Shown piece after piece: positions 3,001 to 4,237 of a stretch of 4,237 nucleotides of DNA (its first letter is position 1; each line of letters begins with the position of its first letter). A program made the position numbers. The stretch lies in IMG/VR virus record IMGVR_UViG_2778261639_000013; one strand, given 5' to 3'. This DNA is from a virus (Duplodnaviria; Heunggongvirae; Uroviricota; Caudoviricetes).

Positions 3001-4237
3001 GTTTTTTATTGTGGTTTTTATTATCTTTTAATGTAACGGTGTTTTTATTAAGTGTGTTTGCGTGGTGTTTTATGTTTTTTATAATTTTTATTTTATTAAA
3101 TTTAAAAGCATTAGTAATGGCTATTCTATATAGCAATATAAGAACTGTTACAAAAAAGGGGGGCAATTACAGGTAGTTATGGATGATGAGTGAAACAGAT
3201 ATTGGAGAACCGGGGAATGAATGATGTCTGAGTCTTATATATCAGAACTCCTTCGCTGTCGCTGGGGGCTCCTGTGCTTATGTCGTTTCCCCGATTCGGT
3301 TTTGAACGATTACCGAATGTTGAAGAATTATGCCAAAATATAGAAAGGATTTACTGCATGAATACCCAATATTTACAGTATGTTCGTGAGCAACTTATGG
3401 CAGCTACTGCTGACTTGAACGGAGCAACGAAAGGCCAGCTCGAAGCCTGGCAGGAGCATGCACAATTTGATACTGGTACATACAAACGAAAGAAGCCGCG
3501 CATTCTGGATGTGGTAACTGGCAAGATGATTACGCTGGATAATACGCCGACTTCCGGTAAGCAGTCGTACGCAAAAGGTTCATCCATTGCTTTGGTCAGC
3601 CCGGTTGAATTCTCAACCTCTTCATGGCGCCGCGCGGTTTTGTCTCTCGATGAACATCAGAAAGCATGGTTGCTTTGGTGTTACAGCGAAAGCGTTCGAT
3701 GGGGGCATCAGGTCACCATAACGCAATGGGCATGGAGCGAGTTTAAAGATTTGTTAAGTAACAGAAAAATTGCAGGTAAGACACTGGATCGCCTGAAGAC
3801 GTTAATCTGGCTGGCTGCACAGGATGTGAAGAGCGAACTTGCAGGGCGTGAGGCCTATGAATACCAGACACTGGCATCATTGGTGGGAGTGACAACAAAA
3901 AACTGGTCCGAGACATTTACTGAACGCTGGGTTGCAATGAAGCACATTTTTCTACAGCTTGATAGTGATGCTTTATTGCTTGTGACGAGAACACGTTCAA
4001 AACAAAAGGCAGCATTTTTACAGCAAAATATTGCAAAACTGGATTAAAAGCCATATACTTCATGCAAATTTGGTATGTTGTAAAAAATGTATAAACCCGC
4101 TGCCGAGTGGGTTTTTTTTATGCCCTGAGTTGTACTTGTACGGTAAACATGCTGGCTGCTATGTAATAGAGTTTTTTTAGCCTGTAACCTCTTGACGGCA
4201 TTGAATTGCTTTTGTTATGAGTTGTAAGCCAATGTTA

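Follow-up and report, generated by a model that had tools for sequence, protein, structure and literature searches.

Three families of Q antiterminators are recognised, namely PF06323 (Q82), PF03589 (lambda) and PF06530 (phage 21) (PMC9388147). For the first of them, biochemical work has defined the cis elements of the late promoter PR' of phage 82, which comprise the Q-binding element (QBE), an extended -10-like pause element and a pause at +25/+26 (PMC5001585; PMC4914094). The DNA considered here, referred to as the window, is a stretch of 4,237 nucleotides (nt) from a virus of the Caudoviricetes (IMG/VR record IMGVR_UViG_2778261639_000013). Over 880 bases it shows complete (100%) identity with Escherichia phage 434 (OL657226.1). 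The region that directly follows its Q antiterminator gene is very probably the late control region of phage 434, composed of a Q82-type PR' promoter, a Q-utilisation site and the terminator tR'. Systems of this kind are already known, and this one, from a classical phage, is a near copy of the phage 82 switch and not a new one.

In phage 82 the pause element of PR' is nearer to the consensus than that of lambda, bears an extended -10 motif and induces a sigma70-dependent pause (PMC5001585). Sigma70 engages this element when the RNA is 21 nt long, the polymerase pauses at +25/+26 and the 3' end of the paused RNA is a U (PMC5001585). The GCC triplet at +15 to +17 is required for a long pause, since the change of +15, +16 or +17 to A approximately halves the pause half-life and the triple change reduces it about five-fold (PMC5001585). 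A fragment of 82 PR' reaching from -31 to +30 contains a functional QBE together with the pause element, the QBE being located between -35 and -10, and NusA stimulates the activity of Q82 (PMC4914094).

The PR'-qut-tR' region of lambda follows the same logic: a constitutive late promoter lies beside Q, the QBE is within the promoter, a sigma70-dependent promoter-proximal pause occurs, and a downstream terminator gives rise to a short RNA (6S) that is made without Q. In lambda the pause is found at +16/+17 with the element AACGAT at +2 to +6, and the terminator at about +194 gives a 6S RNA of roughly 194 nt. Lambda differs however in its Q family (PF03589), the Q families having no obvious sequence similarity to one another (PMC9388147). 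Phage 21 (Q21, PF06530) also shares this logic in its PR' region, where a sigma-dependent pause occurs at +18 (PMC9191641), but differs in the family and fold of its Q and in the arrangement of its QBE.

In phage 434 the Q gene (3358-4047, + strand) encodes a protein of 229 amino acids, which is labelled 'Q82-like' in OL657226 (window position 3358 corresponds to 41296 of that record). The protein matches PF06323 with an E value of 1.1e-91 and 306.8 bits over 216 of the 220 model positions, and this was the only Q family matched in Pfam, where neither the lambda-type PF03589 nor the 21-type PF06530 gave a match. It is identical to the Q protein of phage 82 in 203 of 229 amino acids (89%) without any gap, and the two genes (X92588 for phage 82) share 91% DNA identity. 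The preliminary description of this DNA had assigned the region to an uncharacterised Q class, and this claim has to be abandoned, as PF06323 is the Q82 family itself and the phage 82 cis elements are known from biochemical work. What speaks for a utilisation site of a new Q class is that a sequence search of the PDB with the 434 Q gave no match and that a Q82-family structure is counted among the priorities for research (PMC9388147). The Q82 class is uncharacterised in this one sense alone, that of a solved structure. Given the named family, the high identity to Q82 and a cis layout that equals that of phage 82, a new class has a practically negligible probability.

The -35 hexamer of PR', TTGCAA, was found by consensus scan at 4031-4036 (+ strand) and is at least 90% conserved among 77 distinct family sequences. 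It is followed by a spacer of 17 bp (4037-4053, + strand), which has the partly conserved pattern AA.tg.AtTaAA..gca and is, by analogy with phage 82 (PMC4914094), the probable location of the QBE. The -10 hexamer TATACT (4054-4059, + strand), for which the family consensus is TATATT, was identified by the same scan and by the family alignment. The last 17 bases of the Q gene overlap the -35 hexamer and the beginning of the spacer. The promoter was thus located where the preliminary description had placed it, although its wording 'near-consensus' was somewhat generous for a sequence with 9 of 12 matches to the consensus promoter.

The register shared with 82-type promoters suggests that transcription starts at the A in position 4066 (+ strand), because a +1 at A4066 gives +6/+7 for TG, +9 to +14 for the -10-like hexamer and +25 for T, in agreement with the published numbering of 82 PR' (PMC5001585); the start near 4066 that had been expected earlier points to the same site. 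The -10-like element noted earlier, TGGTATGTT (4071-4079, + strand), has the extended form TG-g-TATGTT at +6 to +14 and corresponds, by its conservation in the family and by comparison with phage 82 (PMC5001585), to the sigma70-dependent pause element; in this register TG.TAT..T is at least 90% conserved among the 77 sequences. Immediately downstream, the alignment places a discriminator-like triplet at +15 to +17 (4080-4082, + strand), which is GTA in 434 and GCC in 82-type loci. A G/C-rich triplet is a property of 82 PR', and assignment to the Q82 type does not depend on it. The predicted pause positions +25/+26, taken from homology with the 82 PR' pause, are T and A (4090-4091, + strand). 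Nearly all relatives have T or C at +25, and T4090 of 434 is preceded by an A/T-rich stretch as in phage 82. The 434 stretch homologous to the 82 fragment that carries the QBE spans 4035-4095.

The intrinsic terminator tR' lies on the + strand, with the hairpin at 4093-4114 (+28 to +49) and a run of eight T at 4112-4119 (to +54). It is recognised by folding, by its annotation in OL657226 (record 42034-42059, equal to window 4096-4121) and by compact-class counterparts in many relatives. The arms AAACCCGCT and AGTGGGTTT (4093-4101 with 4106-4114) form 9 pairs, four of them G-C and one G.U, around a loop of 4 nt, and at the base of the stem an AAA is paired with three of the eight T. Hairpin and tail fold with -12.1 kcal/mol (z = -3.9), and none of 200 shuffles folded as well. 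On the opposite strand the fold is weaker (-8.1 kcal/mol, z = -1.5) and the T run is interrupted, so that the terminator is directional. A strong terminator with a 9-bp stem and T8 tail, forming one unit with the promoter and the -10-like element directly after the antiterminator gene, had been claimed in the preliminary description, and so had a short transcript of about 50 nt. The terminator and the unit were both found as claimed, and the transcript agrees with our prediction of a terminated PR' RNA of about 53-55 nt (4066-4120, + strand), deduced from the start site and the terminator. This RNA has a predicted fold of its own with -15.3 kcal/mol (z = -3.6).

The sequence of phage 82 in X92588 ends at the stop codon of Q, and the comparison of the cis elements was made with prophage and phage loci whose Q is 88-91% identical to that of 434, a range that takes in the 89% of phage 82 Q. 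These 82-type loci read TTGCAA-17-TATATT-6-AAATC-TGA-TATTTT-GCC-N7-T, and if the first A of AAATC is taken as +1 they fit each of the published features of 82 PR' given above. The region of 434 aligns to them without gaps, as TTGCAA-17-TATAyT-6-AAATy-TGr-TATnnT-NNN-N7-T, and only 2 of the 17 spacer positions differ. Phages 434 and 82 therefore appear alike in the Q family, the -35 hexamer and its overlap with the 3' end of Q, the spacer length, the -10 form TATAyT, the register of +1, the extended -10-like pause element at +6 to +14, the T at +25 and the presence of an intrinsic terminator afterwards. The pause element of the 82-type loci, TGATATTTT, is in the same register as TGgTATGTT of 434. 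The differences comprise a -10 of TATATT against TATACT, a pause element of TGA-TATTTT against TGG-TATGTT and the triplet GCC against GTA, besides the position of the terminator, which in 82-like prophage loci begins at about +50 and gives an RNA of about 80 nt (in 434, +28 and about 54 nt).

The conservation of this layout was evaluated in a wider sample. Five Q82-family proteins were aligned and one genome per species was scanned, which resulted in 68 loci from about twenty genera of Enterobacterales, with a Q identity to 434 of 29-73%; 66 of these loci were scanned for the architecture pattern. Kluyvera, Citrobacter, Enterobacter, Klebsiella, Raoultella and Erwinia are among the genera with the Q82-type layout. 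Of the 66 loci, 59 had the strict pattern at the Q 3' end, and the other seven missed it by one base. The 77 distinct sequences gave the consensus TTGCAAAA.tg.AtTaAA..gcatATATTTcatgtaAaTcTGATAT..Tg.C, in which the -35, the -10 and TGnTAT..T stand at fixed distances, each with at least 90% conservation. The loci with 29-35% Q identity, which are the most divergent, keep the promoter form, and there it begins approximately 88 nt past the Q protein match, so that coding constraint does not explain its conservation. Phage Flotzy, with a Q of PF06323 that is 33% identical, has the same layout. The presence, order and spacing of the elements are conserved in the Q82 family, and in 434 they adjoin a close Q82 orthologue.

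Some natural variants were observed among the relatives. In four loci (L099, L103, L119 and L124) AG replaces the TG of the extended -10-like element (AAATCAGATAT), which makes them natural variants without an extended -10 motif. Four loci with an 82-like PR' (L006, L062, L083 and L084) have a conserved promoter and pause element, and no terminator is visible within 70 nt of the pause site; in these it may be absent or situated at a greater distance downstream.

The same conservation decides on a simpler explanation, by which the terminator would be the only functional element, ending the early (PR) operon after Q, and the promoter and the -10-like element would be chance matches in AT-rich DNA. 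OL657226 does annotate the terminator and no promoter, and in the window neither promoter-like sites (7 against 8.2 expected) nor the pause motif TGNTATNNT (5 against 2.8 expected) are significantly commoner than shuffled sequences would lead one to expect. However, when the elements were required in order, as a promoter, TGnTAnnnT at most 20 nt from the start and, within 60 nt, a terminator whose stem has 7 bp or more, the composite occurred once in the window, exactly at the 434 module, and in 5 of 2000 dinucleotide-preserving shuffles. This composite was defined after the site had been seen, and the conservation across relatives is for that reason the weightier argument. The three elements keep their fixed spacing in the 77 sequences and down to 29-35% Q identity, where the promoter is outside the Q coding region; the pattern is specific to its site, with 58 matches near the Q end and one elsewhere in 246 kb (both strands); and the homologous elements of phage 82 are functional in experiments (PMC5001585; PMC4914094). 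A chance co-occurrence around a lone terminator is, judging from the aligned relatives, excluded in practice, and we give this explanation very little credence.

It could also be considered that TGGTATGTT is an independent extended -10 promoter with a start at about 4086-4087, for TGnTATGTT fits the class of promoters able to work without a good -35. Nevertheless the element stands in the fixed register of +6 to +14 behind a conserved full promoter, which is the arrangement of 82 PR' (PMC5001585), and a pause accords with the conservation of T at +25 and of the triplet at +15 to +17. A start at about 4086 would moreover yield an RNA of about 33 nt without obvious role. This alternative is accordingly very improbable, and the element is better explained as the pause element of a Q82-type PR'.

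Some points weigh against the assignment of the region to a Q82-type late control region. Taken alone, the promoter motif and the TGNTATNNT motif are each no better than chance. The start, the pause, the binding of Q and the Q-dependent readthrough would all hold for 434 by homology with phage 82, and the equation with 82 PR' itself is drawn from loci with a Q 88-91% identical and from features described in text. In addition, 434 departs from the at least 90% family consensus at three positions, which are -8 (C), +8 (G) and +17 (A). C is the conserved base at +17, at the same threshold, whereas 434 keeps the G at +15 and has T at +16 and A at +17; the loss of C at +16/+17 could weaken the pause of 434, although a loss of the pause is not implied. 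The three departures are listed at 4059, 4073 and 4082 of the window, and the allele is shared by 434 and enterohaemorrhagic E. coli (EHEC).

If the 434 switch works as that of phage 82 does, RNA polymerase with sigma70 would initiate constitutively at about A4066 from TTGCAA-17-TATACT. The retained sigma70 would then bind again, on the non-template strand, to TGgTATGTT at +6 to +14, and the polymerase would scrunch forward and pause at about +25/+26 (4090/4091). Without Q, the polymerase would resume, meet the hairpin that begins at +28 and, on reaching the T run, release an RNA about 53-55 nt long. Once Q434 has accumulated, it is expected to bind its DNA site, which would lie between -31 and about +5 around the promoter, and, helped by NusA, to be loaded onto the paused complex, making the polymerase resistant to pausing and termination. 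The modified polymerase would then read through tR' into the morons, the lysis genes and the structural genes, the first late gene starting at 4232.

Two classes of terminator are found in the family. In the 82-like class the hairpin starts at about +42 to +53, and a compensatory double change from GAGG/CCTT to GAAG/CTTT supports this hairpin. In the compact class a AAACCCGCC...GCGGGTTTTTT hairpin begins at +28 to +30, and the predicted terminated RNA is about 53-55 nt in 434 against about 80 nt in the 82-like loci. The compact class includes 434, Flotzy and about a dozen genome loci, all the most divergent ones among them, and this form is therefore common and not peculiar to 434. Among the 434-type copies the variation is mostly in the length of the T run (7-9 T): otherwise identical module copies (434; L019, L022 and L057) have 7, 8 or 9 T, and in the copy of L057 one G of the 3' arm of the terminator has been lost. 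The length of the run resembles a slippage-type polymorphism, which could tune the efficiency of termination.

In the compact subclass to which the 434/EHEC allele belongs, the hairpin begins only 3 nt past the pause and the C conserved at +17 is missing. If the polymerase has to be rendered termination-proof by Q within about 28 nt of Q loading, at a point where the RNA is only about 25 nt long, such a template could discriminate between models of Q action, a question that was left open for Q82, where a closed nozzle for RNA threading stands against another mode (PMC9388147). We regard it as a long shot that the compact 434/EHEC template discriminates between these models, that the RNA of about 54 nt is an unrecognised regulatory small RNA (sRNA), or that both are the case. 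The natural 434 allele, with GTA at +15 to +17 and a terminator at +28, could also serve in studies of the pause and of Q82 loading.

As to the sRNA, the RNA produced between PR' and tR' might, in addition to the role of the module as the Q switch, act in trans in lysogens by binding Hfq, in the manner of StxS. The short PR'-tR' transcript of Shiga toxin (Stx) phages is an Hfq-bound regulatory sRNA, and the equivalent short RNAs of lambda, 21, 82 and P22 have no assigned function (PMC7547250). The predicted 434 RNA ends in a stable hairpin and a U run, which is the usual 3' module bound by Hfq, and its module is found with at least 99% identity in 615 of 5426 complete E. coli genomes, O157:H7 and O111 strains included. 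Like the predicted 434 RNA, StxS arises in E. coli prophages as a by-product of a late promoter subject to antitermination, but it is made as a transcript of 258 nt that RNase E processes to 74 nt, and it derives from another PR' region. In 434 only about 27 nt precede the hairpin, a stretch on which the pause element already imposes constraints. In a search of the window no Rfam family reached its threshold, and the EHEC prophage sRNAs that were checked differ in position or size. A trans-acting function of the RNA is consequently unlikely.

The best Rfam match over the whole window was STnc240 (4054-4123, + strand), with 28.2 bits against a gathering score of 55 and an E value of 0.33, in an alignment that depends on the A run and the terminator. 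This match and those to the Phe leader, GcvB and isrK, the latter three far below threshold, were rejected as chance or as generic similarity to terminators. Among the known prophage sRNAs, the anti-sRNAs AgvB and AsxR are located after moron genes (PMC4104026) and were not equated with the 434 RNA. The same decision was taken for HnrS by its size and position (66 nt, within the late genes; PMC13502914) and for PasD, a relative of STnc100 with a link to PF03589 Q genes.

With a coverage of no less than 80%, the module (4020-4237) was found in 618 of the 5426 complete E. coli genomes. One copy from an O157:H7 strain is in a prophage that also carries nleB2. About 850 further E. coli genomes match 4020-4080 alone, i.e. 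the end of Q, the promoter and the pause element, with 80-90% identity, and phage 2B8, whose Q is of the lambda type (PF03589) and whose PR' resembles that of lambda, matches 4094-4237 alone. These partial matches indicate that a specificity unit (Q, QBE, promoter and pause) and a downstream unit (terminator and morons) are exchanged separately. Judging from the alignments, the mosaic joint sits at the terminator and the mosaic boundaries respect the module. From the terminator onward 2B8 (L012 1501-1640) is about 90% identical and has a degraded hairpin, AACCTGCCGCCGAGTAG.

The annotation of OL657226 gives no late promoter PR', start site or pause element, and the coordinates of the module fill this gap in the GenBank record. 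The Q82-type consensus, written as TTGCAAAA-N-tg-N-AtTaAA-N2-gcatATATTTcatgtaAaTcTGATAT..Tg.C, can be used to annotate the late promoters of Enterobacterales prophages, and applies also to the EHEC prophages that carry effector genes.

OL657226 places a CII site and the -35 of paQ on the minus strand at 4023-4036 (TTGCAATATTTTGC), where they overlap the -35 of PR', because TTGCAA is its own reverse complement. Two copies of the CII-binding consensus TTGYN6TTGY are present in the window, where shuffles lead one to expect 1.38, and no convincing -10 was found at the expected distance from this minus-strand paQ -35. As the pattern is at chance frequency and this copy is inside the Q coding sequence, we treat the site as a suggestion at the level of annotation and kept it out of the mechanism. 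An open reading frame (ORF) of 49 amino acids with a TTG start (4031-4180), which runs across the promoter and the terminator, was dismissed as a mechanical ORF.

Upstream of the Q gene the window contains ninF (226-438), ninG (428-1051) and a gene for a NinI-like Ser/Thr phosphatase (1048-1713). These are followed by a remnant of 30 codons of the N-terminus of a lambda-type Q (1710-1806, + strand), labelled in OL657226 as an N-terminal Q fragment. This ORF resembles the start of lambda Q and then stops, and its equivalent in O157:H7 is given in RefSeq as an incomplete antitermination protein. The arrangement suggests that a lambda-type Q was truncated upon the insertion of a block composed of LpxR, ylcG and the Q82-type Q. 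The ylcG-like ORF is at 3221-3343, and downstream of tR' the first late-operon gene, a moron encoding a putative membrane protein (OL657226 CDS 42170-42913), starts on the + strand at 4232-4237 and continues past the end of the window.

The gene for the LpxR lipid A deacylase (1925-2884, - strand; PF09982, E 7e-40) is a moron in reverse orientation, placed after the Q remnant and ahead of the working Q gene. It is bordered by AT-rich DNA on both sides (1800-1925 and 2885-3220), and the same arrangement of LpxR between a Q remnant and a working Q is also found in an O157:H7 prophage.

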